The notes beneath the pieces were generated by a model. That model did not search any database. It worked only from the letters and a program-made list of their open reading frames with translations, and was not told the DNA's origin. Below are positions 2,143 to 61,324 of a stretch of 64,000 nt of DNA, piece by piece. Source of the stretch: a virus; IMG/VR virus record IMGVR_UViG_3300032272_000003, positions 83,680 to 147,679 of that record. The stretch is one strand, 5' to 3'. Within the stretch, counting starts at the first letter, position 1. Each line of letters starts with the position of its first letter. A program made the position numbers and the translations under genes.

Positions 2143-3362
2143 TGGCTGAGACTAGTATCTTCGAATACAATTTAGATAACAAACAGGTCATACGACTGTC
2201 TGCTGATGTAACCGATCCATTGTCAGTCCTAAGCATCTCCACGGTTGTCCTAGAAGAACAGCTTGGTTTAGGGTCTCCTATGCTATCAATCAACATGGTC
2301 GATGGCCTGGGTGATGTATTGGGTAAGTTCTTATTCGATCCCACAATGGTTTTTACACTATCATATGGCCTCACTGAAGACACTCTCCAGAATGCCACAT
2401 TCAAATTCGCCTCAAGCAAGTATGAGAATGCAAGTTCTGGGTCAAGCACAAATATATTAACGACCGTGAACTTCATAGGAAGCCACTGGGAAGGTTTTCT
2501 CAAGGATACCCATAGTAGGTCATGGACACAGAAGCGTTACTCCGCAGTGGCGAGCACGATAGCTGCTGAGATAGGATACACGGCTGATGTAGAAGAGACC
2601 AAAGACTTCCATAACGTTATACAACCTGACTGGACCAATTATCAATTGTTAAAGTGGATGGCAGAGAATGCTGTTAATACTAAAGACATCGGTGGGTACT
2701 TTGTGGGCCTTACCCTGGACAAGCGACTCATCTTCCGCCCTGTTGATCATTTAGCAGAGGTGGTACCAGCAGCGACCTACGTATTGAACGATTCCGATAA
2801 GAAACAATCCGATGATGAGTTGGATTACTTCAGAGCATTCCTTGTGAAGAACGATTATGTGTCGTCAGTAGCCAAGGCAGCATCCGGTGTTAAGTATATG
2901 TACTTCGATTTTGCCACTGGACAGTTTATTAATGGCGAGAGTAAGGTATCTACCTCCAAGCAGAGACAATTAAGTGATGTATTTTACATTGCCGATGAGC
3001 ATGAGAACGCTCCAAATAGATATTATGGTGGTCGTAATACTAATACTCCATCATTATCAGAGAATAATGTATTAAATTCGGCTAATTCAATTAATAGGGC
3101 AACCATTTCTATCGAGGGTAACACCTTTTTACATGCCGGTGACGTATTAAATATGATTATTCCATCTAATTTAGCACATATTGATAATGTAATTGAGGAA
3201 TATTACTCTGGCTACTGGTTAATTGAAAGAATTGCTCATGTATTTAATATGAATAATGGTAAAGTCGTGTCGAATATTACATTAATTCGCCCTGGTATCA
3301 ACTCACCTCTTATATCTGGCTATGTCAAGTCTACCAAAGGCAAGAAGATCACCGAATTATAA
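2142..3362 (+). CDS. Baseplate hub protein (gp27 / late-control-D / VgrG-N-like)
   Basis: 406 aa; RSW...S.VA..IA, IQP.WT..QLL.WMA, I.IEGN..L.AGD, YSGYWLIERIAH motifs; synteny. Confidence 0.75.
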   Translation: MAETSIFEYNLDNKQVIRLSADVTDPLSVLSISTVVLEEQLGLGSPMLSINMVDGLGDVLGKFLFDPTMVFTLSYGLTEDTLQNATFKFASSKYENASSGSSTNILTTVNFIGSHWEGFLKDTHSRSWTQKRYSAVASTIAAEIGYTADVEETKDFHNVIQPDWTNYQLLKWMAENAVNTKDIGGYFVGLTLDKRLIFRPVDHLAEVVPAATYVLNDSDKKQSDDELDYFRAFLVKNDYVSSVAKAASGVKYMYFDFATGQFINGESKVSTSKQRQLSDVFYIADEHENAPNRYYGGRNTNTPSLSENNVLNSANSINRATISIEGNTFLHAGDVLNMIIPSNLAHIDNVIEEYYSGYWLIERIAHVFNMNNGKVVSNITLIRPGINSPLISGYVKSTKGKKITEL

Positions 3363-3551
3363 TACCCACAGTGCTAGATGGAGTGCTGTGGCTTCCTCGG
3401 TCCTAAACCTTTTACGAATCCTCTCATATGCATTACTTGACTGACTGATAGCAGCCAACTGTACTTCTGGTTCAGGGTCATCCATATGACCAATGAAAGA
3501 CCAATGCTCTTCTATCAGCCCCAAACGATATTTGATATAGACCTGGCCCAT
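3357..3551 (-). CDS. Family A small paralog (truncated; DDPEPEVQLAAI repeat; ends LHLALWVL)
   Basis: Shared repeat and C-terminus; TGATG overlap with upstream gene. Confidence 0.7.
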   Translation of the reverse strand: MGQVYIKYRLGLIEEHWSFIGHMDDPEPEVQLAAISQSSNAYERIRKRFRTEEATALHLALWVL

Positions 3552-3787
3552 CACATCACCCACAATGCCATGTGTAAGTTTCTGGCTTCATCGGTTGGCT
3601 TCTTGATACATCTATACGCCCACCTGGACGTTTTAATAGCCGCCAACTGTATTGTCTCAGATGGATTTTCGATGTACATGATGTCAGTCCCTATAATGGA
3701 TATGTGATCCACTTTGTCATCTTCAGACAAACTCATTATCCACCGTGTTTTACTAGCACTATATGTAATATAATCCTCGGTAATCAT
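3551..3787 (-). CDS. Family A small paralog (ends LHMALWVM)
   Basis: IENPSETIQLAAI repeat; near-duplicate of 4059-4307. Confidence 0.8.
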   Translation of the reverse strand: MITEDYITYSASKTRWIMSLSEDDKVDHISIIGTDIMYIENPSETIQLAAIKTSRWAYRCIKKPTDEARNLHMALWVM

Positions 3788-4059
3788 AAGCACCACATCG
3801 CTTTATGTAGATTGGTCACTTCTTGTGAAGGATTCTTAATGTGGTCATAACAATCAGGATGATGAGCAACAGCATATAGCTGTACTTCCTCTAAGGGATT
3901 ATCAATAAGCCCGAAGAGGTGTATGTGATTCCTAACAATATATGACTGAGCATGTAGCGTCGGGTTGGGTATCATACCGATACTATAGGCCGACGTGGCA
4001 ATCAGAGTTAATTGCTGTGTTGTGCTTAGATTTGAATAATCATGTTCAGAATCGACCAT
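3784..4059 (-). CDS. Family A small paralog (ends LHKAMWCL)
   Basis: Three IxNP repeats. Confidence 0.8.
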   Translation of the reverse strand: MVDSEHDYSNLSTTQQLTLIATSAYSIGMIPNPTLHAQSYIVRNHIHLFGLIDNPLEEVQLYAVAHHPDCYDHIKNPSQEVTNLHKAMWCL

Positions 4060-4307
4060 CACATCACCCACAGTGCCATGTGTAAGACTTTGGCTTCATC
4101 AGTAGGATTATCAATACAGTCATAGGCCCACCTGGTCGTTTTAATAGCCGCCAACTGTACAGCCTCTGATGGATTATTAATATACATGATGTCAGACCCC
4201 TTACCGCTTATAGAATTTACAGCTAATAGTTGGTCTTCTTCACTCATAGCATTGTACATAGCAAATTGGTCACGCGCCCATTCTTCATAGTCAGTATCCA
4301 CTTCCAT
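4059..4307 (-). CDS. Family A small paralog (ends LHMALWVM)
   Basis: INNPSEAVQLAAI repeat. Confidence 0.8.
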   Translation of the reverse strand: MEVDTDYEEWARDQFAMYNAMSEEDQLLAVNSISGKGSDIMYINNPSEAVQLAAIKTTRWAYDCIDNPTDEAKVLHMALWVM

Positions 4308-4331
4308 ATTCTTATGCCTTTGTAATTTGTA

Positions 4332-4694
4332 TTATAAAGCCCACAAGGCTTTATCTAATATTACCACCTCACAACAAGGATTGTCAATACACTGGATGGC
4401 TAATGGACTGGCTATCACCGCCATGACCTGTAACTCATTGGGTGGGTTATCGATATAAAAGATAGAACATGGATGGGCCTTAACTGCAATCTCCATAGCC
4501 CAAATAGGTGGATTAGGGACATGCATGATAGCATATCCATTGTTCCTGAGAATCTGTACATTATCATCGCGTTTCATCCTCAAAATCATATGATTTTGTA
4601 TGGCATTGTGTATAGGAATAAAATCACATGTAAGATTACTCAGCCACTTGGCATCCTTACCGGCTAACAGATGCTTACGTACCTGACCTATCAT
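4332..4694 (-). CDS. Family A small paralog (ends LDKALWAL)
   Basis: Three xNP repeats; ATGA overlap. Confidence 0.8.
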   Translation of the reverse strand: MIGQVRKHLLAGKDAKWLSNLTCDFIPIHNAIQNHMILRMKRDDNVQILRNNGYAIMHVPNPPIWAMEIAVKAHPCSIFYIDNPPNELQVMAVIASPLAIQCIDNPCCEVVILDKALWAL

Positions 4695-5077
4695 AGCTTG
4701 TACAACGCTGTGTGTAGTGTGATTGCTTCTTCACATGGGTTCTTTATATAATGCAAGGCAATATCCATCTCAGTGACGGCTATCATCTGGGCAGCTTCAC
4801 ATGGGTTCTTTATAAGTGCAATACATAAGGGATTACCACGGACAGCCACAGTCTGCTCATGCTCTGTAGGATCGTCAAGATACATGATATAGTACCCATT
4901 AAACTTCAGAGCCACCGCAACCTCGTATGGATCGCCTACTGATACTTTAGGATTGTATTTGGCCTCCCAAGCTGCCCGATGCTCCCTAGACAACCGGCTG
5001 TCATTCGTAGAGCCTTTGGGCCTGCCCCTCTTTTGTTTAATATTATTAAACATCTTTATATCATTTTGATCGATCAT
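4691..5077 (-). CDS. Family A paralog with N-terminal AT-hook-like KRGRPKG (ends LHTALYKL)
   Basis: KRGRPK motif plus IKNPCE repeats. Confidence 0.8.
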   Translation of the reverse strand: MIDQNDIKMFNNIKQKRGRPKGSTNDSRLSREHRAAWEAKYNPKVSVGDPYEVAVALKFNGYYIMYLDDPTEHEQTVAVRGNPLCIALIKNPCEAAQMIAVTEMDIALHYIKNPCEEAITLHTALYKL

Positions 5078-5451
5078 AACTGATACAAAGCGTTGTATAA
5101 AAGGGTCGCTTCCTTGGTAGGCTTCTCAATATACCCATAGGCCGACTCACATTCTTCAATAGCCACCAGTTGGACTTTTTCACAAGGATCGGTCATGTAT
5201 TGGATGGCAGAGCCATTGGCATGGACAGCAACCAACATATCCCCTATGTGAGGTTTGACCAGGAACAGGTACATGAACCCGTTCTTATAGAGCCTTGTTC
5301 GTATTTCTTCATCGTGGTTCACGTCAGTATCCTCTAATGTAACAACACCATCGATCAGGTCAGCACTATACTTGACTCCTAACTTGGATGCGAACACAAT
5401 AGCCGCACTCTTTAATAGCATGATATCAAGCTCTTCATAAAAAGCTATCAT
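5074..5451 (-). CDS. Family A small paralog (ends LYNALYQL)
   Basis: TDPCEKVQLVAI repeat. Confidence 0.8.
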   Translation of the reverse strand: MIAFYEELDIMLLKSAAIVFASKLGVKYSADLIDGVVTLEDTDVNHDEEIRTRLYKNGFMYLFLVKPHIGDMLVAVHANGSAIQYMTDPCEKVQLVAIEECESAYGYIEKPTKEATLLYNALYQL

Positions 5452-5457
5452 TACTCA

Positions 5458-5541
5458 TTACCCACCCATCAGATCATCGTACATCATATATGCGATGAGA
5501 CCCATACTGATTGTTATACTAATCCATGATACTATAATCAT
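5458..5541 (-). CDS. 27-aa hydrophobic peptide MIIVSWISITISMGLIAYMMYDDLMGG
   Basis: Translated by hand; GGAGAAAGGA SD-like sequence upstream; fills the gap between families B and A. Confidence 0.55.
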   Translation of the reverse strand: MIIVSWISITISMGLIAYMMYDDLMGG

Positions 5542-5559
5542 TTTCCTTTCTCCAGTTAA

Positions 5560-5970
5560 TCATAGTATATTGGCTTTGTATTGTAATGTCAACTCTGGGT
5601 CAGAGTGAGTCCATACAACCTCTTCAATAAGATGACCGCCATCAGCATGGCAACATAATAACACACAGTAGATGACATCACCGCCTGCCTCTGTATACTC
5701 GTCAACATACCCCTCATCAATCCTTAAATGGAACAACATCTCCATGGCCAGTTGTTTATGATCCATGTCAGAGAAAAAGACCTCATCCAAATATACACTG
5801 AAAAGCTCTTCACCAGTGACAGTACGGTAATTCATATGAATATAATCGAGTGACTTCTCGTTCCATAAGCCAAAGAATGTATCAATCTTCTCAACCATAG
5901 GTATTAGATCATCGACAGTCATATCCGATACCCGCCTATGGACGGCGACTCTCTTCTGTTGATGCTTCAT
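5560..5970 (-). CDS. Family B paralog (ends VWTHSDPELTLQYKANIL)
   Basis: Conserved 18-aa C-terminus. Confidence 0.8.
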   Translation of the reverse strand: MKHQQKRVAVHRRVSDMTVDDLIPMVEKIDTFFGLWNEKSLDYIHMNYRTVTGEELFSVYLDEVFFSDMDHKQLAMEMLFHLRIDEGYVDEYTEAGGDVIYCVLLCCHADGGHLIEEVVWTHSDPELTLQYKANIL

Positions 5971-6344
5971 AGGATATTGGCCTTATATATTAACTCCATC
6001 TCAGGGTCAGGGTGAGTCCATACAACTTCGTCCTGTACCGCACACTCATAGATGCTGTTTGGGATTTTATTAGACATCCTTAAATATATTTTGTATATGG
6101 TACCGACATTCTTCTCGTCAACAATAAGCTCATCTAAAATTAATATTGATAAATGATGTATCGATTTTCTTATGTCTGGGTCATCCTTGGCGAAAAAGTG
6201 TGTACAGAACTTATCCTCATTATTAATTGATACTGTCTTTACCTGAACATTAAATAGGTTGGAACTGTGCTTGTTATAATAATCCCTTACTTTCTGAGCG
6301 ATAGGGTAAAAGTCTTCATATGAATATGATGATATATCACTCAT
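5967..6344 (-). CDS. Family B paralog (ends VWTHPDPEMELIYKANIL)
   Basis: Conserved C-terminus; coupled. Confidence 0.8.
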   Translation of the reverse strand: MSDISSYSYEDFYPIAQKVRDYYNKHSSNLFNVQVKTVSINNEDKFCTHFFAKDDPDIRKSIHHLSILILDELIVDEKNVGTIYKIYLRMSNKIPNSIYECAVQDEVVWTHPDPEMELIYKANIL

Positions 6345-6679
6345 AATATACTGGCCTTATAGTTAATCTCTACACCGGGGTCAGGATGAGTCCATATAGG
6401 TATATATGTACCTTCCGTTCCGCCTATTAACAATTGATAAATGTTATATGGTCTTATATCGATTTCGACCCTGGCGATCTCTTCTAATACACGTCTAATA
6501 TGGACAGTCATACTTTCCTCAAATCTATCAAAGAAGCAGATGTCGATAAAGTCACCATTCTCTAGGTAGGCATTAATAAAGACATATCCAATATCATCGG
6601 GCATCGCATCGGAGAGTTCATATATCCTTTCCATGATAGGTTTGAACTCAGCCGGGGTATACTCGGATATCCTTTTCAC
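6341..6679 (-). CDS. Family B paralog (ends IWTHPDPGVEINYKASIL)
   Basis: Conserved C-terminus; GTGA overlap. Confidence 0.8.
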   Translation of the reverse strand: MKRISEYTPAEFKPIMERIYELSDAMPDDIGYVFINAYLENGDFIDICFFDRFEESMTVHIRRVLEEIARVEIDIRPYNIYQLLIGGTEGTYIPIWTHPDPGVEINYKASIL

Positions 6680-6933
6680 CCCACATGCTCCCTGGTTGCC
6701 AGGACGGCTTTGATCTTATCCATGTATTCCTTCACCGGGCGACGTGGTACTTCAACATCGTTCTCCCAGTCAGAGCCAATATACTCATGGCACAGTTCAC
6801 AGCACCGTGGCCCACGGTAATGGCCTATAGCTGAGTGAACAGCCCTTGCACTCTTAAGCACATTCAGCAATCGTGGTGTGGATAGCTTATTCAATTGTTC
6901 TGCTGTTAGGTAGTTGAGATTACTTTTACTCAT
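6676..6933 (-). CDS. Hypothetical protein with CCxxC motif (not a member of the array families)
   Basis: Coupled ORF; KLSTPRLL...CCELC...LATREHV. Confidence 0.75.
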   Translation of the reverse strand: MSKSNLNYLTAEQLNKLSTPRLLNVLKSARAVHSAIGHYRGPRCCELCHEYIGSDWENDVEVPRRPVKEYMDKIKAVLATREHVG

Positions 6934-7328
6934 AATTTGTTTGCCTTATAGGTTAGCTTGACCTCTGGATCAGGATGGGTCCATACGTTACAATGTAGTA
7001 CTGTTTTCTCAGAAACAGCATCTACAGTATCTATAGTATCTGGATAATAGTAACATTCCATGGACAGTTTATAAATCATATCACCACTATATTCATCAAT
7101 CTCATTTAACATAATACTAGCCAAGTACTCAATTGTAGTATCATCAATATATTCATGATGGAAATAGTATAGTTGACACCTAACACCATCCACGGTATGA
7201 ACAATCACACGTCTACCATTTGTGTTACCTCTTTCCACCCACGCTTTGTGGCAATCAATCATTTGAGCCGCAATAGGTATAAACTCTTTGTGAGTCAGTT
7301 CTGATAATCGCTTGTATTCAGATGTCAT
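6930..7328 (-). CDS. Family B paralog (ends VWTHPDPEVKLTYKANKL)
   Basis: Conserved C-terminus; GGGAG SD upstream of ATG at 7328. Confidence 0.8.
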   Translation of the reverse strand: MTSEYKRLSELTHKEFIPIAAQMIDCHKAWVERGNTNGRRVIVHTVDGVRCQLYYFHHEYIDDTTIEYLASIMLNEIDEYSGDMIYKLSMECYYYPDTIDTVDAVSEKTVLHCNVWTHPDPEVKLTYKANKL

Positions 7329-7333
7329 AAATA
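7326..7333 (+). promoter_or_regulatory. T4-type late promoter CATAAATA
   Basis: 5 nt upstream of the gp5 ATG (7339). Confidence 0.7.
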
Positions 7334-7338
7334 CTCCC

Positions 7339-8154
7339 ATGGATGAAATGACATTTAACGGTAACTATAGAGCCATTGTAACAGATAACAACGATCCTTT
7401 GCAAGCAGGAAGGGTTAGGGTTCGGGTTATGCCCATGTTTAAGGATGTTGACGCTGACGCTCTGCCCTGGGCGGTACTGGCTGATGCCTTTATGGGATCG
7501 CCTAATGCCGGGTCAGTTAATATACCTGAGATAGGTGCCAACCTATTTGTATTCTTTGAGGCCGGTGACCACCGGTACCCAGTATACTTTGCCACTGCTC
7601 CATCCATACAGAACGGTACACCCGATCTGCCTACCCTCACCAGGGAAGCAGACGATTCAGTTACCGATATCAATACCAATGCTAAGAAAGGTGTAGGGAC
7701 AGCCTCGGGTAGCTCCTGGGATGAGCCTGGTAGCGCCTATGCAGCCGTGTACCCAGAGAATAAGATTTGGAAGACCACCGATGGCCTATTGATAGAATTG
7801 GACGATACAGACGGTCAGCTTCGCTTCCACATATACCATCCAGCCGGTACCCGTATGGAGATCGATAAGGATGGCAACGAGGTTAACCACACACAGGGTA
7901 ATCGATTTACTGTTGTCGTCGGTGATGATAAAGTTTATATCACAGGGAATGGCGACATTACAGTAGATGGGGACATGGGTATTAAGGTGGGTGGTGATAC
8001 CAAGATAGATGTTACCGGTAATGCTGATATTATTGCTGCTGGGGATGCCTCAGTAGAGAGTGTTAACTCAACTGTTAAGGGGTCAGCGAGTGTTACTATA
8101 GATGGTGGCCCTGCTGTCACTATCACTGGTGGATTAATTAGTCTTAATCCTTAA
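7339..8154 (+). CDS. Baseplate central spike, T4 gp5/VgrG-like (OB fold plus beta-helix, no lysozyme domain)
   Basis: YRAIVTDNNDPLQAGRVRVRV...LPWA, P.IG...VFFE.GD..YP; C-terminal VxGD repeats. Confidence 0.9.
   Translation: MDEMTFNGNYRAIVTDNNDPLQAGRVRVRVMPMFKDVDADALPWAVLADAFMGSPNAGSVNIPEIGANLFVFFEAGDHRYPVYFATAPSIQNGTPDLPTLTREADDSVTDINTNAKKGVGTASGSSWDEPGSAYAAVYPENKIWKTTDGLLIELDDTDGQLRFHIYHPAGTRMEIDKDGNEVNHTQGNRFTVVVGDDKVYITGNGDITVDGDMGIKVGGDTKIDVTGNADIIAAGDASVESVNSTVKGSASVTIDGGPAVTITGGLISLNP
7375..7404 (-). promoter_or_regulatory. Candidate sigma70 promoter TTGCAA-18-(TG)TACAAT driving array 1
   Basis: Read from the - strand inside the gp5 5' end; has an extended -10. Confidence 0.5.
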
Positions 8155-8492
8155 AGCAATACCATTGCTTTGTATTCAAGTATCTGTGGATGGCTCTCAT
8201 CGTACCATACTGTCTTATAATCATCTGTTTGGTGGTCATCAAACCCTATAGCAACTGCAACTGATATTGTCTTGTCAGACCATAATCTATCAAACCCAGA
8301 TTTTAACGATTCATTATTATGACAGTACCCATACCCATACCATACATGATCGATGGTATCGAACCGGACAGCAATATAAAGCTCCAATGGGTAAGTGTTT
8401 ATAACACTCTTGAGGTGCTTCCTGACACTCTCAATAGCAGCATTCTTCTTTCTGAGATTATGGATGACTTCCCAATATGCTTTATTATTCAT
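8151..8492 (-). CDS. Family C paralog (ends VWYDESHPQILEYKAMVLL)
   Basis: Conserved W..H..YKA..L tail. Confidence 0.8.
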   Translation of the reverse strand: MNNKAYWEVIHNLRKKNAAIESVRKHLKSVINTYPLELYIAVRFDTIDHVWYGYGYCHNNESLKSGFDRLWSDKTISVAVAIGFDDHQTDDYKTVWYDESHPQILEYKAMVLL

Positions 8493-8495
8493 ATC

Positions 8496-8816
8496 TTAGA
8501 ATACCTCGTTTGCAATAAACCCTAAAGTGTCTGGATGATCATCATTAAACCAGATATGCTTGATTACCCTATAATCATTAATGTCAATATATTCAATCGA
8601 CACCCCTAATGTGTTGCAACAAATCTTCTGTTCCAGTAATTTAGTATTACCCATGTCATTAAGAGGATTAATTGTGTAGGGTATATTGTATAAATGTACC
8701 CAACGCCCGAACGAAAATCCAAAAACACGTAAATGTCTATTCCTGTGTGGTGATATACCACGGACACTCTCGACCATCTTCTCATTAATTTCAATTGACA
8801 TTCGTTTATAATTCAT
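8496..8816 (-). CDS. Family C paralog (ends IWFNDDHPDTLGFIANEVF)
   Basis: Conserved tail. Confidence 0.8.
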   Translation of the reverse strand: MNYKRMSIEINEKMVESVRGISPHRNRHLRVFGFSFGRWVHLYNIPYTINPLNDMGNTKLLEQKICCNTLGVSIEYIDINDYRVIKHIWFNDDHPDTLGFIANEVF

Positions 8817-8866
8817 TTAGACCTTTTAATCCTTAAACAAATCTCCCAATACCGTTCCCTACTCAT
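8813..8866 (-). CDS. 17-aa bridging mini-ORF MSRERYWEICLRIKRSK
   Basis: ATGA overlaps on both sides; resembles the N-terminus of 8151-8492. Confidence 0.55.
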   Translation of the reverse strand: MSRERYWEICLRIKRSK

Positions 8867-9222
8867 AATTGATCTGCCTTATACTGTAAATACTCTGGAT
8901 CATCTAGGTTCTCCCATACAACCTTACGGTGCATAAACATCTTTTCATCTACATACTGAATGGCAATAGCAATCGAAAAACCCATCAAATATGTATATAG
9001 CTCAATTAAGTTAACGGTACCATATTCTGGTGACGGTACCAAGGTACTACGTAGCCACCCATATTGTGTGGTGTACGTATAAAGCCTAAATGAATTGACT
9101 GAATTGACTGAATTGACTGATTTAAATTGTGTACGGGGGTTATGGGTTAGTATACCCATACTCATACTCACCAGGTCATCAACATTACCAACCCGCTTAA
9201 CGATATCATTCATCATCGTCAT
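8863..9222 (-). CDS. Family C paralog (ends VWENLDDPEYLQYKADQL)
   Basis: Conserved tail; internal SVN repeat. Confidence 0.8.
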   Translation of the reverse strand: MTMMNDIVKRVGNVDDLVSMSMGILTHNPRTQFKSVNSVNSVNSFRLYTYTTQYGWLRSTLVPSPEYGTVNLIELYTYLMGFSIAIAIQYVDEKMFMHRKVVWENLDDPEYLQYKADQL

Positions 9223-9608
9223 AACACTGTATCCGCTATGAACTCAGGGTAGTACGAGCTATCCTTATTAATCCACACCTCATGAGCTACCCCATGCTTA
9301 CTACCATTGGTAGAGGTGACGATCATGATCGATACTATATCATGATGTATTAGATGACACCCAACATACCATTCAACCCTCGTCGCCCATTCCCTACGTT
9401 GCTCTAATGTACTCTTATAGCTCACATCAGAAGCATATCTGAACGATTCAATCCTATTCCATCGTGATAGATTATCAACATCCGATGGGGCATACCATCC
9501 AACAACCCATGCATCATACGCCTGATAAGCTCCCATGTTCTCAGAGAGTCCCCATAGCTTGGATGATACTGTATTGGCTATCTGGTTGGCTAACATACTA
9601 TTCATCAT
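9219..9608 (-). CDS. Family C paralog (ends VWINKDSSYYPEFIADTVL)
   Basis: Conserved tail. Confidence 0.8.
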   Translation of the reverse strand: MMNSMLANQIANTVSSKLWGLSENMGAYQAYDAWVVGWYAPSDVDNLSRWNRIESFRYASDVSYKSTLEQRREWATRVEWYVGCHLIHHDIVSIMIVTSTNGSKHGVAHEVWINKDSSYYPEFIADTVL

Positions 9609-9847
9609 AACACATACAACGCTTTATGTAACATTATCGCTTCTTCTGTTGGGTTCTTAATATACCGGATCATCATATTACTCACTGCTACCAATCTTAA
9701 TTGATAATCATTAGGGATACATGTGATCTTCCTGACAGTATGAACGGCATTCTCCATGCATTTGATCCTCCAGATTGGATACGAACTATACTTCTGTTCC
9801 AATTGAGATAGTATACCATCGAGATGATGTTTATCGAGAGGACTCAT
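9605..9847 (-). CDS. Family A' paralog (ends IKNPTEEAIMLHKALYVL)
   Basis: IPxxxQLRxV plus family A tail. Confidence 0.8.
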   Translation of the reverse strand: MSPLDKHHLDGILSQLEQKYSSYPIWRIKCMENAVHTVRKITCIPNDYQLRLVAVSNMMIRYIKNPTEEAIMLHKALYVL

Positions 9848-10086
9848 AGCTCATACAACGCTTTATGTAACAACGTTGCCTCCGGGCATGGGTTATTAAG
9901 GTATTGGTGTAGATTGTGACACGCCACCAATCTTAATTGATAATACATAGGAATATCAATTATTCTCTTAACAGTTCTAACGGCATTATGCCTGTAATAA
10001 ACCCCTACCAGTGGATGAGATGATTTATACATCGTTTCCAATTGGTATAGGACAGTATCAAGATGATGTTTATCGATGGGTGTCAT
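9844..10086 (-). CDS. Family A' paralog (ends LHKALYEL)
   Basis: Close paralog of 9605-9847. Confidence 0.8.
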   Translation of the reverse strand: MTPIDKHHLDTVLYQLETMYKSSHPLVGVYYRHNAVRTVKRIIDIPMYYQLRLVACHNLHQYLNNPCPEATLLHKALYEL

Positions 10087-10343
10087 AATCGCCACAACGC
10101 TTTATGAGTCAGTTTGGCTTCCTCGGTAGGATTATTAATGTAACTAATCATGTAGGAACCTATGGCCACCGTTCTTAATTGTAAATCTTCGGGGATATTA
10201 CATTTACCGGAAAGACACTTCACTAAATCTGATATCATCCGATACGGGTACCTCTCATTGGGGGTCATAGTATTAAGCTTGATATCTATGCTGTCGAGTA
10301 TCCTACGTAGGTTATGTTCTTCGATGGGTGTTATAGGTTTCAT
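10083..10343 (-). CDS. Family A' paralog (ends THKALWRL)
   Basis: Conserved tail. Confidence 0.8.
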   Translation of the reverse strand: MKPITPIEEHNLRRILDSIDIKLNTMTPNERYPYRMISDLVKCLSGKCNIPEDLQLRTVAIGSYMISYINNPTEEAKLTHKALWRL

Positions 10344-10591
10344 AGCTCATACAATGCATTTTGAATCAGCACTGCCTCTTCGCATGGTTCATCTATATAC
10401 CGGATCATATATACAGCACATTCTACAAGTCTAACCTGTATGTCATCGGGGATACCACCACCATAGATTAACAACACGATGCTCCGTATCGACATCCTAT
10501 GGGATATCTTGACAACCTCACGTTCAGCACTATCATGCTTATTCAATAGATACTCGATTTCCTTAAGCTTCTCGGTAAGCTCCTGACTCAT
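10340..10591 (-). CDS. Family A' paralog (ends IQNALYEL)
   Basis: Conserved tail. Confidence 0.8.
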   Translation of the reverse strand: MSQELTEKLKEIEYLLNKHDSAEREVVKISHRMSIRSIVLLIYGGGIPDDIQVRLVECAVYMIRYIDEPCEEAVLIQNALYEL

Positions 10592-10842
10592 AACCCGTGT
10601 ATGGCCTTATGGAGGAATGTGACATCTTTAGTAGGCTGTATCAGGTGTGCCCAGGATGTAGAGGCTAGTTCGACGGCCCTGATCTGTAAATCCACTGGTA
10701 GGGGTTTATTACAATCCTCAAGTTTATACCGCAGATTTACACGGGAAAAGAACGTTTTCATGCCTCTGTTGTTGTCGGTAAGGAGTGCCCTCTCAAGCCG
10801 ACGACATGCTCTCTTTACTTTGCTCGCTTCTCTATTAGCCAT
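10588..10842 (-). CDS. Family A' paralog (ends LHKAIHGL)
   Basis: Conserved tail. Confidence 0.8.
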   Translation of the reverse strand: MANREASKVKRACRRLERALLTDNNRGMKTFFSRVNLRYKLEDCNKPLPVDLQIRAVELASTSWAHLIQPTKDVTFLHKAIHGL

Positions 10843-10845
10843 TAT

Positions 10846-11106
10846 CTATGACTCCCATAGTGCTTTGTGCATCAAAGTAGCCGCTGGTGTTGGATCAGTA
10901 ATATGTCCATACAGGTACGGGCTACACCTTATCATTTGTAATTGAACCTCTTCAGGGATAACCTCTATCCCTCTAACGATTGTAATGATCTGAATCTGAA
11001 TCTGAATCTGAAAAGCTGTTTGAAACGATTCTACCTTATCTTCATCACATGTGTCAATCAACATTTGCATGCTGGTCATCAAATCCATGAAATCGTTTTT
11101 CTTCAC
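10846..11106 (-). CDS. Family A' paralog (ends MHKALWES)
   Basis: Conserved tail; QI repeat. Confidence 0.8.
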   Translation of the reverse strand: MKKNDFMDLMTSMQMLIDTCDEDKVESFQTAFQIQIQIQIITIVRGIEVIPEEVQLQMIRCSPYLYGHITDPTPAATLMHKALWES

Positions 11107-11510
11107 CCCTTAAGGTTCTCCATCTTATATTCTGTATAGTGGCTATGGCCAGTGTTCTCCCATAGGATAGCACTGTCTGTCTGGGCGACCGGATGATTCA
11201 CGTCCAGGCCGGTGGCGTCCAGGAGGGTGATCTTAACAGCAACAGCACATGACCCATTGAATATCCCCTGTAGCAATGCACAAGTAATATCATGGTAAAT
11301 ATAATCCTCATAAGAGTCGGCATCGATTTTCACCCACCCCAGGCCATGGTGGTATGCCTCTATCAGGAACCCTATCTGTTCTGGGCATTTATAATCCCGT
11401 CTAAGGAATATCGTAACGGCATCGGTGATGTCCTTGCACAACTGTACCTGGGAATCCAACACTTCCTGAATCTTCATCTGTTCGTCAATCTGTTTCTGTT
11501 CTTCTGTCAT
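11103..11510 (-). CDS. Family C paralog (ILWENTGHSHYTEYKMENLKG)
   Basis: GW, AVK and tail motifs. Confidence 0.8.
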   Translation of the reverse strand: MTEEQKQIDEQMKIQEVLDSQVQLCKDITDAVTIFLRRDYKCPEQIGFLIEAYHHGLGWVKIDADSYEDYIYHDITCALLQGIFNGSCAVAVKITLLDATGLDVNHPVAQTDSAILWENTGHSHYTEYKMENLKG

Positions 11511-11836
11511 AGGTTCTCTCCTGCTATGTATTGGTAATAATCTGGATGGGCTTCATCAACCCATATAACCTCACTAACCTCACTCACTTTACTGTTGGTC
11601 GGGTGTTGGTACCAGTACCACCCGATCTTAAAGCCCACAGGGCTTTTCGTATTACTTAGTTGTAAAATCCTATCTCTCAGGATAGGATGGTAAATATTAC
11701 ACTGTGACCTCTCTATGAGCATGGTACTCCGCCATTTACAATCAGAATAGTACATCACCTCAAAGATAGAGGAACGCTTTTCACCAATCGATTTAATGAT
11801 ATCACTGGCTATACCTACGGCAACATGATGTTTCAT
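11507..11836 (-). CDS. Family C paralog (VIWVDEAHPDYYQYIAGENL)
   Basis: Conserved tail. Confidence 0.8.
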   Translation of the reverse strand: MKHHVAVGIASDIIKSIGEKRSSIFEVMYYSDCKWRSTMLIERSQCNIYHPILRDRILQLSNTKSPVGFKIGWYWYQHPTNSKVSEVSEVIWVDEAHPDYYQYIAGENL

Positions 11837-12171
11837 AGCTTCTCTCCTGCTACATATTCAAGATATTGAGGATGGTCCACATCCTCCCATAATATTACCT
11901 CAGATAATAATGTACCAGTCATACGATTAATATTACCAAACCCCCCACCATGTATTTGTAACTTAAAGCATAATGGGTTCTTTAATGCGAATGCTGTCTT
12001 GATCCTAGTCTTTAATATATCTTCATAAATAACCGCTGTTGGACCCTTAAATTTAGAACAACTCTCCCATCCCCAGTATAGGTCATAATGCATAAGTACA
12101 CATGTCCCTTCAGAAGCCACAGCAATTGCTATTATCTTATCTCTTAATTTAACAATACCTGCATTATTCAT
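11833..12171 (-). CDS. Family C paralog (ILWEDVDHPQYLEYVAGEKL)
   Basis: Conserved tail. Confidence 0.8.
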   Translation of the reverse strand: MNNAGIVKLRDKIIAIAVASEGTCVLMHYDLYWGWESCSKFKGPTAVIYEDILKTRIKTAFALKNPLCFKLQIHGGGFGNINRMTGTLLSEVILWEDVDHPQYLEYVAGEKL

Positions 12172-12539
12172 AACCTCTCCCTCGCTACGTATTCGATAAA
12201 ATCTGGATTATATGTATCCTCCCATATAATAACCCCATCTAAATCTAATAAAGGATGTTTGTGTGCTGGTCTGTGTATTGATCTGGAGGGATAACGCATT
12301 TGTATTTGTAACTTGAATATTATAGGAGAGTGCGTGACAAATGATGTCTGTATCCTACCCCTTACCATATCATGATAGGTTCTCACTCTCTTCTCCCCGG
12401 TAGTAAAAAATATACAACAGTCCGCCCATTCAAGACGTTTAGAGTCATAAAACGTGATCACACATCTATGATCATCGTCAAAACTACCAGACATCAGTAT
12501 TATCTCATTCGTTAATTCATTAATACCTGCATTATTCAT
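12168..12539 (-). CDS. Family C paralog (IIWEDTYNPDFIEYVARERL)
   Basis: Conserved tail; MNNAGI start shared with neighbour. Confidence 0.8.
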   Translation of the reverse strand: MNNAGINELTNEIILMSGSFDDDHRCVITFYDSKRLEWADCCIFFTTGEKRVRTYHDMVRGRIQTSFVTHSPIIFKLQIQMRYPSRSIHRPAHKHPLLDLDGVIIWEDTYNPDFIEYVARERL

Positions 12540-12928
12540 AACATCATCCCAGCAATAAAGCCCAGGTAGTCTGTATGATCTGTATCAGCCCACACCATTA
12601 TCAATCCTTCTTTGGGCGGATGCTCATTATAATTACCCCGACCCCAATCCCAACTACCTGACCCCATCCAGACCATATGATCCCAATCAGATATTATCGC
12701 TATACCTATAAGGCTTGGGTAGGGTAGATACCACGTTAACGTATTCCTGATATTGTTTCTCTCTATTGTGCCAACCCCAGCATCAAACTCAATATTAGGA
12801 ATAAAATGATCCTTAAAACAATACACCAGTCGATAGAAACTATTATTAGTATCGAAGGCATCCCGTTGGGTGGTCTTGGTCTTCTTAATAATCATATCCG
12901 TGACCTCTCCCACGTCTCTACTGATCAT
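12536..12928 (-). CDS. Family C paralog (VWADTDHTDYLGFIAGMML)
   Basis: Conserved tail. Confidence 0.8.
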   Translation of the reverse strand: MISRDVGEVTDMIIKKTKTTQRDAFDTNNSFYRLVYCFKDHFIPNIEFDAGVGTIERNNIRNTLTWYLPYPSLIGIAIISDWDHMVWMGSGSWDWGRGNYNEHPPKEGLIMVWADTDHTDYLGFIAGMML

Positions 12929-13251
12929 AACATATCGTCCGATTTATATTCGAGGTAATATTCATGCTCTTTATTCTCCCATATTAACACATTAGGGTCA
13001 ACTAACACATCACCAGTGAACATTTTGTCATCAAATACGAGCTTAAGGGCAACAACGTTGTCATTAAAGGCGTCATTAATCTTACGACGAATCATTCGAT
13101 AGTCGCCCAACATGGGTATGCACTTGAAGTATCTGTTCCAGCCCCTCTCAGGGATGTATCCGAATAAAGCCATACTATAATACTGCTCACCCATGTTTCG
13201 TGCCACCTTGGTAATGTTACCAGAGAGGGTATTACTCGTATTATCAGTCAT
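12925..13251 (-). CDS. Family C paralog (IWENKEHEYYLEYKSDDML)
   Basis: Conserved tail. Confidence 0.8.
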   Translation of the reverse strand: MTDNTSNTLSGNITKVARNMGEQYYSMALFGYIPERGWNRYFKCIPMLGDYRMIRRKINDAFNDNVVALKLVFDDKMFTGDVLVDPNVLIWENKEHEYYLEYKSDDML

Positions 13252-13586
13252 AACATATCGTCCGCTTTGTATTCCAGGTATCTACTGTGCTCTTCATCCT
13301 CCCATAATAACATACTAGGGTCAGGGGCATCAATCATTCCAACAGCCCATTGTTGAGAGAATATTAGCTTAACAGCTACTATACTATGAATGTTTCCATA
13401 ATAACCAATGTATCTTTTAAATTGACCATATCTATCCTTAGCATGTCGGGATGCGAAGGTCATATAATATGACCACCCTTCACTATCATGATAGACCCAT
13501 AACCCGCACGAGATATACCATGTCGAGTATTCCAGGGAATTGTTTACGATCATACTTGCCAACTTCGATATGGTATCGGCATTCAT
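13248..13586 (-). CDS. Family C paralog (LWEDEEHSRYLEYKADDML)
   Basis: Conserved tail. Confidence 0.8.
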   Translation of the reverse strand: MNADTISKLASMIVNNSLEYSTWYISCGLWVYHDSEGWSYYMTFASRHAKDRYGQFKRYIGYYGNIHSIVAVKLIFSQQWAVGMIDAPDPSMLLWEDEEHSRYLEYKADDML

Positions 13587-13924
13587 AACATCACATCAGC
13601 AACAAATACATCATAATCCTTATGTTCTTTATTCTGCCATAGGATAATCTTTGATCTTGGTGCAGCAAATGGGGCAATGGCAATGGCAATTATATCCTCA
13701 TCCACACCCACCCCAAATACCTTCAGACTCTCACTGATCCTGAGTACCTGACAACGGGTTGCATCCATATCGAACCCTACTAACCATGACCCCATGGCGG
13801 AGTTAATACTGGCAGCATGATAGGCATACATACTGTAGTACCGGTAATAAGTAGTACCGTTACCCCTCTTATGGAGATGCTTAGCGGCTTCTGCTATCTT
13901 CTCAGCCAGGACATCTACATTCAC
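13583..13924 (-). CDS. Family C paralog (LWQNKEHKDYDVFVADVML)
   Basis: Conserved tail. Confidence 0.8.
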   Translation of the reverse strand: MNVDVLAEKIAEAAKHLHKRGNGTTYYRYYSMYAYHAASINSAMGSWLVGFDMDATRCQVLRISESLKVFGVGVDEDIIAIAIAPFAAPRSKIILWQNKEHKDYDVFVADVML

Positions 13925-14277
13925 AACATCACCTCAGCTATAAATACATCGTAATCGATATGCTCTTTATTCTCCCACATGATAATCTTATCATTGCCCT
14001 TGTCACTCATACTTACAAGGGCAATAGCAATTACCTTATCATCATCAATGTAATCAGCGATATTACGTTGTATATGGAATACCTGGCTCTGACTGGCTAC
14101 AATAAGAAGTCCTCCACCGAACCAACCACTATTGGCTAGGTTGAAGTATCCAGCTTTATATACCACTACCCGAAACTTCCAGTGCTGACCACCAGACTGC
14201 CGGTAAATTGCCTTCGCAGTATCGGAGATTTTCATGGCCAGGCCATGTACATTAACACCTTTTACGAAATAGTTCAT
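13921..14277 (-). CDS. Family C paralog (MWENKEHIDYDVFIAEVML)
   Basis: Conserved tail. Confidence 0.8.
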   Translation of the reverse strand: MNYFVKGVNVHGLAMKISDTAKAIYRQSGGQHWKFRVVVYKAGYFNLANSGWFGGGLLIVASQSQVFHIQRNIADYIDDDKVIAIALVSMSDKGNDKIIMWENKEHIDYDVFIAEVML

Positions 14278-14633
14278 AGGCTCTCGCTCGCAATATAATC
14301 AAGGTACTCAGGATGATCCTCGTTCTTCCATATGATTTGTTCATATATTTGGCCATTGTAATTGAAAGCAATCGCTTTAACAGCAACACACTTCCAATCT
14401 TCAATCCAAATACGTAAAGCACTTCTTAAGTCAAGCCTATCTGTGGTCATTGCAAAATCATTGCTAATGATGCTAATACCAAATCCAGAATACCATATTT
14501 CATTACTATATGGTGACACCCTGACACCAACTACACTATTTAATTCACATAGTTGTTCGTAACTATTTAATTCACATAGTTGTTCGTAAAGAGTATTCTC
14601 AATACTCTCGATTGTTCTATTATCACTACTCAT
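14274..14633 (-). CDS. Family C paralog (IWKNEDHPEYLDYIASESL)
   Basis: Conserved tail; 27-bp internal tandem duplication. Confidence 0.8.
   Translation of the reverse strand: MSSDNRTIESIENTLYEQLCELNSYEQLCELNSVVGVRVSPYSNEIWYSGFGISIISNDFAMTTDRLDLRSALRIWIEDWKCVAVKAIAFNYNGQIYEQIIWKNEDHPEYLDYIASESL
14535..14588. repeat. Perfect 27-bp tandem duplication (YEQLCELNS x2)
   Basis: actatttaattcacatagttgttcgta twice. Confidence 0.95.
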
Positions 14634-14671
14634 AACATCTTATCCACCTTTTCTTGTATATGAGAATCCAT
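14630..14671 (-). CDS. 13-aa leader mini-ORF MDSHIQEKVDKML
   Basis: ATG 6 nt after the -10 box; TGA overlaps the ATG of the first array gene. Confidence 0.5.
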   Translation of the reverse strand: MDSHIQEKVDKML

Positions 14672-14677
14672 GGCAAT

Positions 14678-14707
14678 ATATTAACCTAATAAATAAGGGT
14701 ATGTCAA
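14678..14707 (-). promoter_or_regulatory. Candidate sigma70 early promoter TTGACA-18-TAATAT driving array 2
   Basis: Perfect -35 inside the first codons of gp25. Confidence 0.6.
14688..14695 (+). promoter_or_regulatory. T4-type late promoter AATAAATA
   Basis: 5 nt upstream of the gp25 ATG. Confidence 0.7.
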
Positions 14708-15090
14708 GACAAACTAAATACAGTGATATCGAATTCCAAATGAAACGCGATGTCGGTGGTGAGATTATCATCGTCCATGGTGAAGATGCTATTGGACAAT
14801 CGATCAAGAACATCCTCTCTACCTACCCAGGCGAGAGAATCATGAATCCCGAGTTCGGTAGTAGGATGAGAGACTTCCTATTCGAGCCTATGAACATCAT
14901 CACAGTTGAACGTATGGAGCTGGAGATCAGACGTGCACTCACTCAGTGGGAAGATCGTGTCAATATCATCCAGATCAAGGTCAAAGATGACCTGGACAAC
15001 AACTACTACGACATCACAGTGATGTACAAGATCAAGACTACTGGCCATACCGCTTTCTTCTCAGGGAAAGTCAGACCAGCAAGCGACTAA
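14701..15090 (+). CDS. Baseplate wedge protein gp25-like (GPW_gp25)
   Basis: AIGQSIKNILSTYPGERIMNPEFGS...LFEP...WEDRV. Confidence 0.95.
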   Translation: MSRQTKYSDIEFQMKRDVGGEIIIVHGEDAIGQSIKNILSTYPGERIMNPEFGSRMRDFLFEPMNIITVERMELEIRRALTQWEDRVNIIQIKVKDDLDNNYYDITVMYKIKTTGHTAFFSGKVRPASD

Positions 15091-15110: not shown

Positions 15111-17657
15111 ATGGCGAATTTCGATTACACAAATTATAATTACCAAGAATTAATTGCTGAAGTGCAGCGAGTATTAGCTGCTGCCTCTGACAATCCTGCT
15201 GTATGGCAGGATTCATATCATTCAAGCACAGCCCAGGTGATCATCCAGGTCATTGCTGCTATGACTGATAACCTTCATTATATGCTGGAGAGACGTAGCC
15301 AAGAGAACTTCCTACCTACCGCTCGTTTAGCATCATCAGTAGGAGCAATTGCTAACCTATTGGGATACCGCCCAAGACTCACAGTGTCATCTTCAGGTAC
15401 GGTACAGCTTATCCTGGACGTAGCTGCTATTGAGCAGATTGTTATCCCTAAGTACGCCTCGGTGACGCTCGGTGATAAGAACTTTGTTACATCTGACCAG
15501 TCATTGATATTGGTTGGAGAGACTGTTGTTGATCTTGAAGTGTTCGAGGGTACTGTTGAATTCGTTGAGGTCGATACCACTACCGGTATTATCACCACCA
15601 ATGATACTGACAAGGATGTGTTCTATGATTTGACTTCTAACTTCCTCCTTATTAAAGATTACAGTGATATCGAGAATGACAGCTTCCTTATTTCAAGTGA
15701 TGCTGCTCAAGACTTCTACGATGTTACCAAGGCTGACCCTAGTGCCGTAACAGTGGTACCACCTATCGGTGCCCTATCATTTGCTCAGGCCACTGACGAG
15801 GTGTTTGACATCCGTTTATCTAATGATGGGCTACGTGTCCACTTTGGTGATGATGAGTTCGGTGAACGCCCACAGGGTACCCTAACAGTTAAATGGGTCA
15901 AGTCTTCTGGCCAGAGTGTAACGGTGCCATCTACCGGTGAATCATTCACTATGCCTGATTATCCTACCCTGGAAGATACAGCTCTACCTACACCTAACTC
16001 TTACACATATACAATCCTTAACACGACTGCTATTGATGGTGCCCTGGCCCCTGAGACTGTGGATCAGATTAAGACCCATGCTCCTGACTTCGCCCGTACC
16101 GGTAACCGTGCTGTAACCAAGCATGACTTCTCATACTGGACTAAGCAATCTGCTGTTGGTGGTATCATCGACGCTGCTGCTTATGGTGAAGAAGAAACAG
16201 GCATCACAGTATTCAATGCCAATAACGTCAATGTGGTTTACCTACAGACTGACGGTACCGAACTGTCTATCGCCGAGAAGCAAGAACTGAAAGACTTCCT
16301 CGACATCTACAAGACTATCACTACCCTGGTTATCATTAACCCTGCTGTGAACGTTCCCCTGGATATCGATGTTACAGTCGTACAGAACCCTAACCTATCA
16401 TTGGCCAGCTCACAGGTAGAAGACCTGGTACGTTCTGCCCTTGATGAGTTCTTCGAGATTCAGGAAGGCTCTATAGCTAAATCAGCATATCACTCAGAGA
16501 TCGTTGAACATCTCCAGAACTATACTGCTGTTGACCAAACTGGTATATCTAAGAACATCGCTCGTAACGTGACTGTTACTGTTAAGGCTCTGAACATTCT
16601 TGACCTGGATGGCTACGGTGACCAGGCGGCGGACTTCGTTACAGTTGTCGTCCCTGCCAACCCAACCGGTATAGCAGTGGATGCTACAGTGTATGATTTT
16701 GATTGTCTTTTTGATGGCACCACTAATATTAACGTAAATGCCCTTGGTTCACAGCTCACTACCTTTGCTGATGTGTTGACACAAATCAATACCCAGATAT
16801 CAGGATATGGTGTTGCTCGTATTAAGAGCGACAAGATCATTATTCAAAGTAATACATTAGGCACCGCATCTGATGTGGACATAACCGATAACAATTGGTG
16901 GTCTGCTATGGGCGGAACACTAGATGCATCAAGTTCTGGTGGTACCAATGCGATTGACACCGTTATCCCTATCCCAGTTTTAGCACAGCCCACTGTACCG
17001 GTAGATTTCATCTACCCTACCTCAGTGTTGCTTGTTGATGAGAACGGAGCCGCTGTTGCTTCTCCGGGCCTCCAGCGTGTTATATATGGTGATGGTATCA
17101 CTGGTGCCGATAGCACCGGTATATCAGGCACTACACCTTACTCAGTAGACATCACTGTCGATGGCGGTGGTGTTCAAACTGTCACCGCACCAGCCAATGA
17201 CCTATTAACATATGCTGCTGTGGTAAATGAAATCAATTCCCAGACTACCGGCCTACACTGTGAGCTATTAAATGGTCAATTTATCATCTACAGTCTCGTT
17301 AATGGTGCCGGTACAAGCATATTAATTGATGATAGTGGCTACGGTGATAAATTATTCACTGATTTAGATGCATTTACGAGTATTGAAGCGGCTGTCCCTG
17401 GATTAAATACCGCTGCCGACACACCATTAACCGCTGATGTTGGTTATATAGGTGTTGGTACGATTAATTATAAGACTGGTGAGATGGATATGCTCAAGTA
17501 TTTGGATAATGGTCGCTATTATGTGAAGTATTCACAGGATGCTGATCAGAATTTCGCTGCCTCAGCACGCCAAGTACTGTTATTTGATAACCAGGTGCTC
17601 ACTAATGACCCACTTGCACCACAAATACTATCGACTGTGACCGTCGTAACGGCTTAA
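15111..17657 (+). CDS. Baseplate wedge protein gp6-like with extra C-terminal domains
   Basis: ENFLPTAR...A.LLGYRP, HFGD..FG..P, E....IK..AP......RAVT..DF. Confidence 0.9.
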   Translation: MANFDYTNYNYQELIAEVQRVLAAASDNPAVWQDSYHSSTAQVIIQVIAAMTDNLHYMLERRSQENFLPTARLASSVGAIANLLGYRPRLTVSSSGTVQLILDVAAIEQIVIPKYASVTLGDKNFVTSDQSLILVGETVVDLEVFEGTVEFVEVDTTTGIITTNDTDKDVFYDLTSNFLLIKDYSDIENDSFLISSDAAQDFYDVTKADPSAVTVVPPIGALSFAQATDEVFDIRLSNDGLRVHFGDDEFGERPQGTLTVKWVKSSGQSVTVPSTGESFTMPDYPTLEDTALPTPNSYTYTILNTTAIDGALAPETVDQIKTHAPDFARTGNRAVTKHDFSYWTKQSAVGGIIDAAAYGEEETGITVFNANNVNVVYLQTDGTELSIAEKQELKDFLDIYKTITTLVIINPAVNVPLDIDVTVVQNPNLSLASSQVEDLVRSALDEFFEIQEGSIAKSAYHSEIVEHLQNYTAVDQTGISKNIARNVTVTVKALNILDLDGYGDQAADFVTVVVPANPTGIAVDATVYDFDCLFDGTTNINVNALGSQLTTFADVLTQINTQISGYGVARIKSDKIIIQSNTLGTASDVDITDNNWWSAMGGTLDASSSGGTNAIDTVIPIPVLAQPTVPVDFIYPTSVLLVDENGAAVASPGLQRVIYGDGITGADSTGISGTTPYSVDITVDGGGVQTVTAPANDLLTYAAVVNEINSQTTGLHCELLNGQFIIYSLVNGAGTSILIDDSGYGDKLFTDLDAFTSIEAAVPGLNTAADTPLTADVGYIGVGTINYKTGEMDMLKYLDNGRYYVKYSQDADQNFAASARQVLLFDNQVLTNDPLAPQILSTVTVVTA

Positions 17658-41182: not shown

Positions 41183-41190
41183 TATAAATA
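41183..41190 (+). promoter_or_regulatory. Late promoter TATAAATA
   Basis: Perfect consensus 5 nt before ATG 41196. Confidence 0.8.
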
Positions 41191-41195
41191 GATGT

Positions 41196-41224
41196 ATGGT
41201 ACACTACTATAATGCTCAAGTCAA
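41196..41224 (-). promoter_or_regulatory. Candidate sigma70 promoter TTGACT-17-TACCAT
   Basis: The -10 overlaps the gp15 start codon. Confidence 0.5.
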
Positions 41225-59802: not shown

Positions 59803-59831
59803 ATGCTATCATTTAAGATATCCGAAGTCAA
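59803..59831 (-). promoter_or_regulatory. Sigma70 promoter TTGACT-17-(TG)TAGCAT
   Basis: The -35 overlaps late promoter AATAAATA 59830-59837 on the + strand. Confidence 0.6.
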
Positions 59832-59842
59832 TAAATAGATGT

Positions 59843-61300: not shown

Positions 61301-61324
61301 ATTCGCTCCTGTATAAATACTAGC

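Follow-up and report, generated by a model that had tools for sequence, protein, structure and literature searches.

The window analyzed here is a 64,000-nt stretch of DNA (positions 83,680 to 147,679) that forms the final 64 kb of the 147,679-bp IMG/VR virus record IMGVR_UViG_3300032272_000003, whose CheckV completeness is 43%. On its minus strand, at 8151-14671, the window carries a tandem array of small genes, most of which begin in a four-nucleotide overlap with the stop codon of the gene before. Analysis of this array suggests, with a probability of roughly two in three, that it is an overlap-coupled early unit in which ribosomes would pass from gene to gene by termination-reinitiation, and that the two very short open reading frames (mini-ORFs) found with the genes are incidental.

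The array consists of 20 genes from two paralogous families arranged in the block order A x10, B x6, and A x4, with 14 members of 106-135 residues in family A and six members of 80-86 residues in family B. Together with the two mini-ORFs, the genes form 21 junctions, and re-derivation of each junction yielded 19 ATGA or GTGA overlaps and two 3-nt gaps. The initial annotation of this DNA had described a chain of about 22 ORFs in which almost every junction is a 4-nt overlap and the sole exceptions are 3-nt gaps at 10846/10842 and 8496/8492, a -10 box 6 nt before the ATG of mini-ORF 1, and an apparent gap at 8817-8862 spanned exactly by an ORF with ATGA on both sides; all of these features were recovered. 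When the mini-ORFs are left out, the 19 gene-gene junctions comprise 16 overlaps (in runs of 10 and 6), the two 3-nt gaps, and one 46-nt gap. The gene starting at 14633 is followed by ten successive overlaps, with starts at 14277, 13924 (GTGA), 13586, 13251, 12928, 12539, 12171, 11836, 11510, and 11106 (GTGA). The first 3-nt gap separates the TAG stop at 10846 from the ATG at 10842, the next six overlaps lie at the starts 10591, 10343, 10086, 9847, 9608, and 9222, and the final 3-nt gap lies between the stop at 8496 and the ATG at 8492. Two of these starts are ambiguous: the longest ORF at 10095 begins with GTG, where paralog alignment favours ATG 10086 instead, and the ATGATG at 9608 allows either a 4-nt or a 1-nt overlap. 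The array genes are real, as indicated by their positive codon-usage scores, the conservation of N- and C-termini among paralogs, and an AlphaFold model with a predicted local distance difference test (pLDDT) score of 91. The features of the array, with Shine-Dalgarno (SD) duplex energies in kcal/mol and (-) for the minus strand, are as follows.

14678-14707 (-): predicted sigma70-like early promoter, TTGACA (14707-14702), 18-nt spacer, TAATAT (14683-14678), in the 67-nt divergent intergenic region
14630-14671 (-): mini-ORF 1, 13 codons, doubling as the 38-nt leader of the first gene; ATGA overlap with ATG 14633
14643-14650 (-): SD-like AAGGTGGA, 10 nt upstream of ATG 14633; duplex energy of -7.2
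14274-14633 (-): family A gene 1, 119 residues; perfect in-frame repeat of 27 nt x2
13921-14277 (-): family A gene 2, 118 residues; ATGA overlap
13583-13924 (-): family A gene 3, 113 residues; GTGA overlap, strong SD in the upstream tail (-9.9)
13248-13586 (-): family A gene 4, 112 residues; ATGA overlap, no SD (-3.3), AlphaFold pLDDT of 91
12925-13251 (-): family A gene 5, 108 residues; ATGA overlap, no SD
12536-12928 (-): family A gene 6, 130 residues; ATGA overlap, no SD
12168-12539 (-): family A gene 7, 123 residues; ATGA overlap, no SD
11833-12171 (-): family A gene 8, 112 residues; ATGA overlap, SD in the upstream tail (-8.5)
11507-11836 (-): family A gene 9, 109 residues; ATGA overlap, SD in the upstream tail (-7.4)
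11103-11510 (-): family A gene 10, 135 residues; ATGA overlap, ends Gly-TGA
10846-11106 (-): family B gene 1, 86 residues; GTGA overlap, TAG stop, in-frame repeat of 6 nt x4, internal promoter-like site at 11057-11028
10588-10842 (-): family B gene 2, 84 residues; 3-nt gap, own SD (-6.8)
10340-10591 (-): family B gene 3, 83 residues; ATGA overlap
10083-10343 (-): family B gene 4, 86 residues; ATGA overlap, no SD (-1.5)
9844-10086 (-): family B gene 5, 80 residues from ATG 10086; ATGA overlap, start set by paralog alignment
9605-9847 (-): family B gene 6, 80 residues; ATGA overlap, no SD (-1.5)
9219-9608 (-): family A gene 11, 129 residues; ATGATG overlap, no SD
8863-9222 (-): family A gene 12, 119 residues; ATGA overlap, no SD, in-frame repeat of 9 nt x3.3
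8813-8866 (-): mini-ORF 2, 17 codons, across the 46-nt spacer; ATGA at each end
8822-8826 (-): SD-like AAAGG, 5 nt upstream of ATG 8816; duplex energy of -6.3
8496-8816 (-): family A gene 13, 106 residues; TAA stop
8151-8492 (-): family A gene 14, 113 residues; 3-nt gap, own SD (-7.3), stop overlapping that of the convergent gp5-like gene

Comparison of the array with the rest of the record revealed a strong enrichment of 4-nt overlaps. Such overlaps are found at 22 of the 30 junctions in this array and a sister array (3357-7340, described below), against approximately 35 of the 183 other junctions of the 147.7-kb record (Fisher p = 9e-9), and the longest run is 10 in the array and 5 elsewhere in the genome. 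TGA stops are likewise overrepresented in the genes of the two arrays (27/32, against approximately 69/221 elsewhere; p = 1e-8). At the codon level, 22 of the 23 genes with a Leu end use TTA or CTA before TGA and the other uses TTG, whereas A-ending codons make up only 45% of internal Leu codons (binomial p = 3e-7). Genes with a Gly or Met end retain the overlap as GTGA, and an unrelated 85-residue gene embedded in the sister array is joined in the same way. Together, the retained A-ending Leu codons, the GTGA joins, and the unrelated gene show that selection maintains the stop/start overlap itself and not solely a C-terminal leucine. The mean amino-acid identity within family A is 19%, and identity at third codon positions is 33%, where composition alone predicts 27%; with paralogs so divergent, the joins are not simply recent copies. 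Perfect in-frame tandem repeats were also observed inside array genes at 14535-14589 (27 nt x2), 10988-11012 (6 nt x4.2), and 9091-9120 (9 nt x3.3), with further such repeats at 11566-11584 (9 nt x2.1) and 13673-13690 (6 nt x3), which appear to be signs of ongoing slippage in fast-diverging paralogs.

Analysis of the initiation signals indicated that SD strength varies with the type of junction. SD sites were scored as the duplex energy with a generic bacterial anti-SD sequence, used in place of that of the host. Across the genome, genes with a spacer of at least 10 nt have a median energy of -7.3 kcal/mol; for genes joined by an overlap, the median is -3.9 in the arrays (p = 0.003) and -4.1 in the rest of the genome (p = 0.003). 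In this array, the anti-SD energy is weaker than -6 kcal/mol at 11 of the 16 overlap-joined genes. An SD is essentially absent from the family B block and from a subgroup with Met-Leu tails (starts 13586, 13251, 12928, and 12539), and five further overlap-joined genes have a good SD encoded in the tail of the upstream gene. At the four genes lacking a join to a full-length gene upstream (14633, 10842, 8816, and 8492), the SD energy is always -6.3 or stronger, so that a good SD is present in 4/4 of these genes against 5/16 of those joined by an overlap (one-sided Fisher p = 0.026, worked by hand). Experiments have demonstrated tight coupling in 13 of 14 gene pairs with ATGA overlaps, where the contribution of the SD varied between none and essential (PMC6728339), and the SD-overlap trade-off in this array therefore fits known termination-reinitiation. 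No minus-strand terminator-like site was found within 8151-14633, and a single long early transcript therefore probably originates at the 14707-14678 promoter. The gene at 10842, which is preceded by a gap and carries an SD, has a further promoter-like site (11057-11028) about 180 nt upstream of it.

These features suggest a model in which the 20 tandem paralogs would be expressed as a single early polycistronic unit, and the NTGA joins that selection retains would let a ribosome terminating on one gene restart on the next. An SD in the upstream tail would assist restart at about one overlap in three, and restart would be SD-free at the others. An ordinary SD would take over where the overlap is broken, namely at the first gene, at both 3-nt gaps, and at the 46-nt spacer. 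Mini-ORF 1 would then be an SD-bearing 5' leader, possibly derived from a family A 3' end, and mini-ORF 2 an ordinary SD-bearing spacer, both as by-products. Co-transcription, actual coupling, and early timing are what the sequence would predict, and the benefits may include even expression and protection of the long transcript from Rho. The proposal in the initial annotation that selection maintains a ribosome relay is thus supported in part: the A-ending Leu codons and the GTGA joins speak for selection on the stop/start overlaps, and many downstream genes have no ribosome-binding site of their own, but the mini-ORFs are not supported as needed links. Its further suggestion, that any cassette ending in Leu-TGA could be inserted without its own ribosome-binding site, is too narrow because five junctions have an SD in the upstream tail and non-Leu ends also conform.

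The role of the mini-ORFs is central to the alternative that we consider next in line, though unlikely: a full relay in which a leaderless transcript loads 70S ribosomes on the 13-codon mini-ORF 1, these are handed over along 6.5 kb, and the 17-codon mini-ORF 2 is a bridge under selection. The layout of the promoter agrees with this proposal. The -35 and -10 boxes and the 6-nt spacing place the predicted transcript start at A14671, 7 nt after the -10 box, so that +1 is the A of the mini-ORF 1 ATG and -1 is a C. ATAAATA stands exactly 5 nt before the start codon in eight to nine late genes of this phage, so leaderless initiation looks common, and short leaderless upstream ORFs have been proposed to deliver ribosomes in mycobacteria (PMC4633059, cited in PMC12548453). 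However, the main gene at 14633 has its own initiation signal (AAGGTGGA, -7.2), unlike most overlap-joined genes, and leaderless delivery would be expected at a gene lacking such a signal. Similar ATG-initiated upstream ORFs ending in ATGA occur at 7 of 48 comparable gene starts in the genome. The initial annotation also regarded the end of mini-ORF 1 as mimicking the tail (KADDML) of what it called family C. The resemblance of mini-ORF 1 to family A 3' ends is marginal (an ungapped match of 18/36 nt outside the last six, P of about 0.04, with the last 9 nt identical to those of five family A tails), and mini-ORF 1 is possibly a relic of the 3' end of a duplication unit (P of about 0.03-0.04), which fits as well as mimicry.

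Mini-ORF 2 was analyzed in the same manner. The 17-codon ORF at 8866-8813 spans the 46-nt spacer at 8862-8817 exactly, with ATGA at both ends, as a relay would predict. Both ATGA motifs belong to the flanking genes and their frame relation has a one-in-three chance, while the spacer frame is open in 17% of shuffles or 41% of array-derived 46-mers, and the chance of an exact bridge is therefore 0.06-0.14. Genome-wide, ATGA-to-ATGA bridging is found in only 2 of the 47 gaps of 15-130 nt between same-strand genes, and the 108-nt and 24-nt gaps of the sister array have no ATGA-to-ATGA bridging frame: in the former, an ATGA-initiated frame ends after 14 codons, far from the next gene, and the latter comes after a TAA stop. 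The gene behind mini-ORF 2 also has its own SD (-6.3). With an SD of -6.3 or stronger at all four non-overlap genes, the genes behind the mini-ORFs look self-initiating. Chance alone would yield frames of this kind at roughly 6-15%. The claim that the mini-ORFs are necessary links of the chain was thus not borne out, and the two are probably incidental. Further searches in the spacer were negative: a promoter search gave only a weak TTTACA-17-TATGAG with the final T missing, and RNA structure in the leader and spacers was not significant (Z of -0.1 to -0.8). An inserted repeat element was rejected as the origin of the spacer, as no second copy of it exists in the genome.

A stricter version of the relay, in which the 6.5-kb transcript is an obligate single track with the leaderless 13-codon ORF loading 70S ribosomes and all later starts, including the bridge, reached only by hand-over, seems more doubtful still. 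If it were true, the C-terminal tails common to unrelated families would be dual-coded, part protein and part restart signal. Another proposal holds that the overlaps are neutral for translation, being leftovers of the tandem duplication of an ATGA-joined unit and of spacer deletion in a capsid-limited genome. Adjacent paralogs do have near-identical tails and joins, and the 4-nt class is the commonest among overlaps genome-wide, yet 22/23 genes retain an A-ending terminal Leu codon despite synonymous sites near saturation, and SD strength drops at overlaps and returns at gaps, a trade-off that pure compaction does not predict; we consider this explanation very improbable. The idea that the 3' tail and join act as a short homology patch for unequal crossing-over or cassette shuffling, in a role like that of promoter-stem-loop cassettes (PeSL) in T4-type phages, draws on the block structure of both arrays, on the unrelated gene with the same joins, and on documented PeSL-mediated shuffling (PMC2839356), but it has very little likelihood given that only about 6-9 nt are common between subgroups, too short for efficient homologous exchange, that the array has no PeSL-like stem-loops or intergenic spacers, and that the SD loss at overlaps is left unexplained, although it is compatible with termination-reinitiation at the overlaps.

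Several points weigh against the overlap-coupled unit with incidental mini-ORFs. This reading is drawn from sequence alone, and the genome-wide baseline comes from a crude, home-made codon-usage gene caller, which makes the rest-of-genome figures approximate. Adjacent paralogs have near-identical tails, and the junction counts are thus not fully independent. Selection for compactness alone could favour overlaps without coupling. In addition, mini-ORF 1 may well be translated and contribute: its translation is plausible because the predicted transcript start falls on its ATG and leaderless starts look normal for this phage.

The genome setting of the array was further analyzed. The source appears to be an uncultured large myovirus-like phage with regulatory signals that look T4-like. 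Recognisable baseplate genes are a gp5-like gene at 7339-8154 (by Pfam match), a gp25-like gene at 14701-15090, and a gp6/J-like gene at 15111-17657, whose gp6-like protein is only about 29% identical to the nearest GenBank phages; the array thus sits as a small non-core block between the core gp5-like and gp25-like genes. In the whole record, 23 of the 24 perfect TTGACA promoter-like sites with a TANNNT -10 box are on the minus strand, where a rough composition-based expectation is about 4 per strand, and short leaders carrying AGGAG come after most of the minus-strand sites. (T)ATAAATA motifs precede the plus-strand structural genes. The motifs point to a T4-like split, in which early genes would be driven by host-type sigma70 promoters on the minus strand and late genes, on the plus strand, by TATAAATA-type late promoters; the strand bias of the sigma70-like sites suggests that this split is strict. 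The array would accordingly be an early unit lying antisense within a late baseplate cluster. The genes with ATAAATA exactly 5 nt before the start codon include the gp5-like and gp25-like genes, and this spacing suggests that the phage makes leaderless late mRNAs and that leaderless starts are normal for it. The sites in the window are as follows.

7327-7341, 14689-14703, 41184-41198, 59831-59845, and 61313-61327 (plus strand): ATAAATA, 5 nt, start codon
36056-36042 (minus strand): ATAAATA, 5 nt, start codon; three more such sites lie in the record upstream of the window

The remaining ATAAATA sites precede leaders of 20-30 nt with AGGAG, and canonical SD sites are used across the phage genome. 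At the far end of the array, the stop codons of the last gene and of the convergent gp5-like gene share 2 nt within a palindrome, TTAA (8151-8154), on which both genes end. No terminator was observed between the two genes, and minus-strand transcripts of the array are predicted to continue antisense across the gp5-like gene and on into the sister array (7340-3357).

The array organisation goes on beyond the gp5-like gene as this sister array, in which the families are mixed. Its part at 3357-5451 on the minus strand contains seven family B-like genes, in each of which a helical repeat of about 22 residues occurs one to three times, and one of these genes has a below-threshold match to Pfam DUF4116 (E = 0.025). 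The unrelated 85-residue protein contains Cys and is encoded at 6676-6933 on the minus strand, by a gene that starts in an ATGA overlap and stops in a GTGA overlap. The 108-nt gap carries a promoter-like site at 5592-5564, an SD, and a separate 27-codon hydrophobic ORF at 5541-5458 on the minus strand. This strongly hydrophobic ORF, which has these initiation signals as its own and stops 6 nt short of the next gene, may encode a real small membrane peptide. At 7328-7348, the first sister-array gene (ATG 7328 or 7340) diverges from the gp5-like gene (ATG 7339), with starts that overlap or almost abut, and the promoter of each gene must therefore lie within the coding sequence of the other.

Megablast and tblastn against GenBank phages recovered no relatives of the array, and IMG/VR scans with two array proteins also returned none. 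A family A profile searched against 1.84 billion representatives recovered only its 14 self matches, and a family B profile searched against 5.8 billion clusters likewise recovered only self matches, with one family B protein recorded on two contigs. The flanks of gp25-like neighbours in IMG/VR and JGI metagenomes (at most 39% identical) contain no family A or B gene. Pfam and PHROGs searches with the proteins of the first array gave nothing significant. The AlphaFold model of family A, built from the 14-paralog alignment, adopts an alpha/beta two-layer fold, for which Foldseek gave nothing at E <= 0.001 (the best VIA Z-score of 7.3 was within the noise range) and the ESM Atlas gave no lead, while the family B model is helical and poor (pLDDT of 69). 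From predicted timing and rapid divergence alone, one might guess at an early role in host takeover or counter-defence.

Comparison with known systems places this array among established arrangements. Like the ATGA/TGATG pairs reported by Huber et al. (2019, PMC6728339) and reviewed in PMC12548453, the array genes are co-directional and share stop and start nucleotides, here at 16 of the 19 gene-gene junctions; in both cases an SD is only sometimes present in the upstream gene, and SDs are weaker at overlaps than at spaced genes. The known examples are pairs encoding subunits of one complex, whereas here runs of 10 and then 6 occur among divergent paralogs and coupling is predicted from the gene arrangement. 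The leaderless short upstream ORFs proposed by Shell et al. (2015, PMC4633059) to deliver ribosomes resemble mini-ORF 1, with its predicted transcript start on the ATG and the overlap of the short ORF with the main start, and differ in that the main gene here has its own SD. As in the hyperplastic regions of T4-type phages (Arbiol et al. 2010, PMC2839356; Comeau et al. 2014, PMC4122927), blocks of small putative early genes with sigma70-like promoters lie between core genes. Unlike those regions, the array has no PeSL, as shown by the lack of minus-strand terminator-like stems in 8151-14633 and of a significant spacer fold; its genes are tandem paralogs fused stop-to-start, and promoters are few (14707 and possibly 11057, with 5592 and 4387 in the sister array). 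A known phage gene that has no usable ribosome-binding site and is translated only via its upstream gene is also similar, but it involves a single junction, compared with about 11 SD-poor junctions here.

In this novel phage, the array is thus a clean and long instance of an established arrangement, and it refines rather than changes current understanding, as the mechanism is already well known. About half of the array genes lack a ribosome-binding site, while the other genes of the phage have textbook ones. If the coupling is real, the array would be among the longer natural chains of restart-dependent genes and would offer a clean natural substrate for measuring the distance and efficiency of ribosome relay in bacteria. 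Part of the conserved end of these fast-evolving proteins is constrained by the start signal of the neighbouring gene, which matters when such a tail is read as a protein tag.

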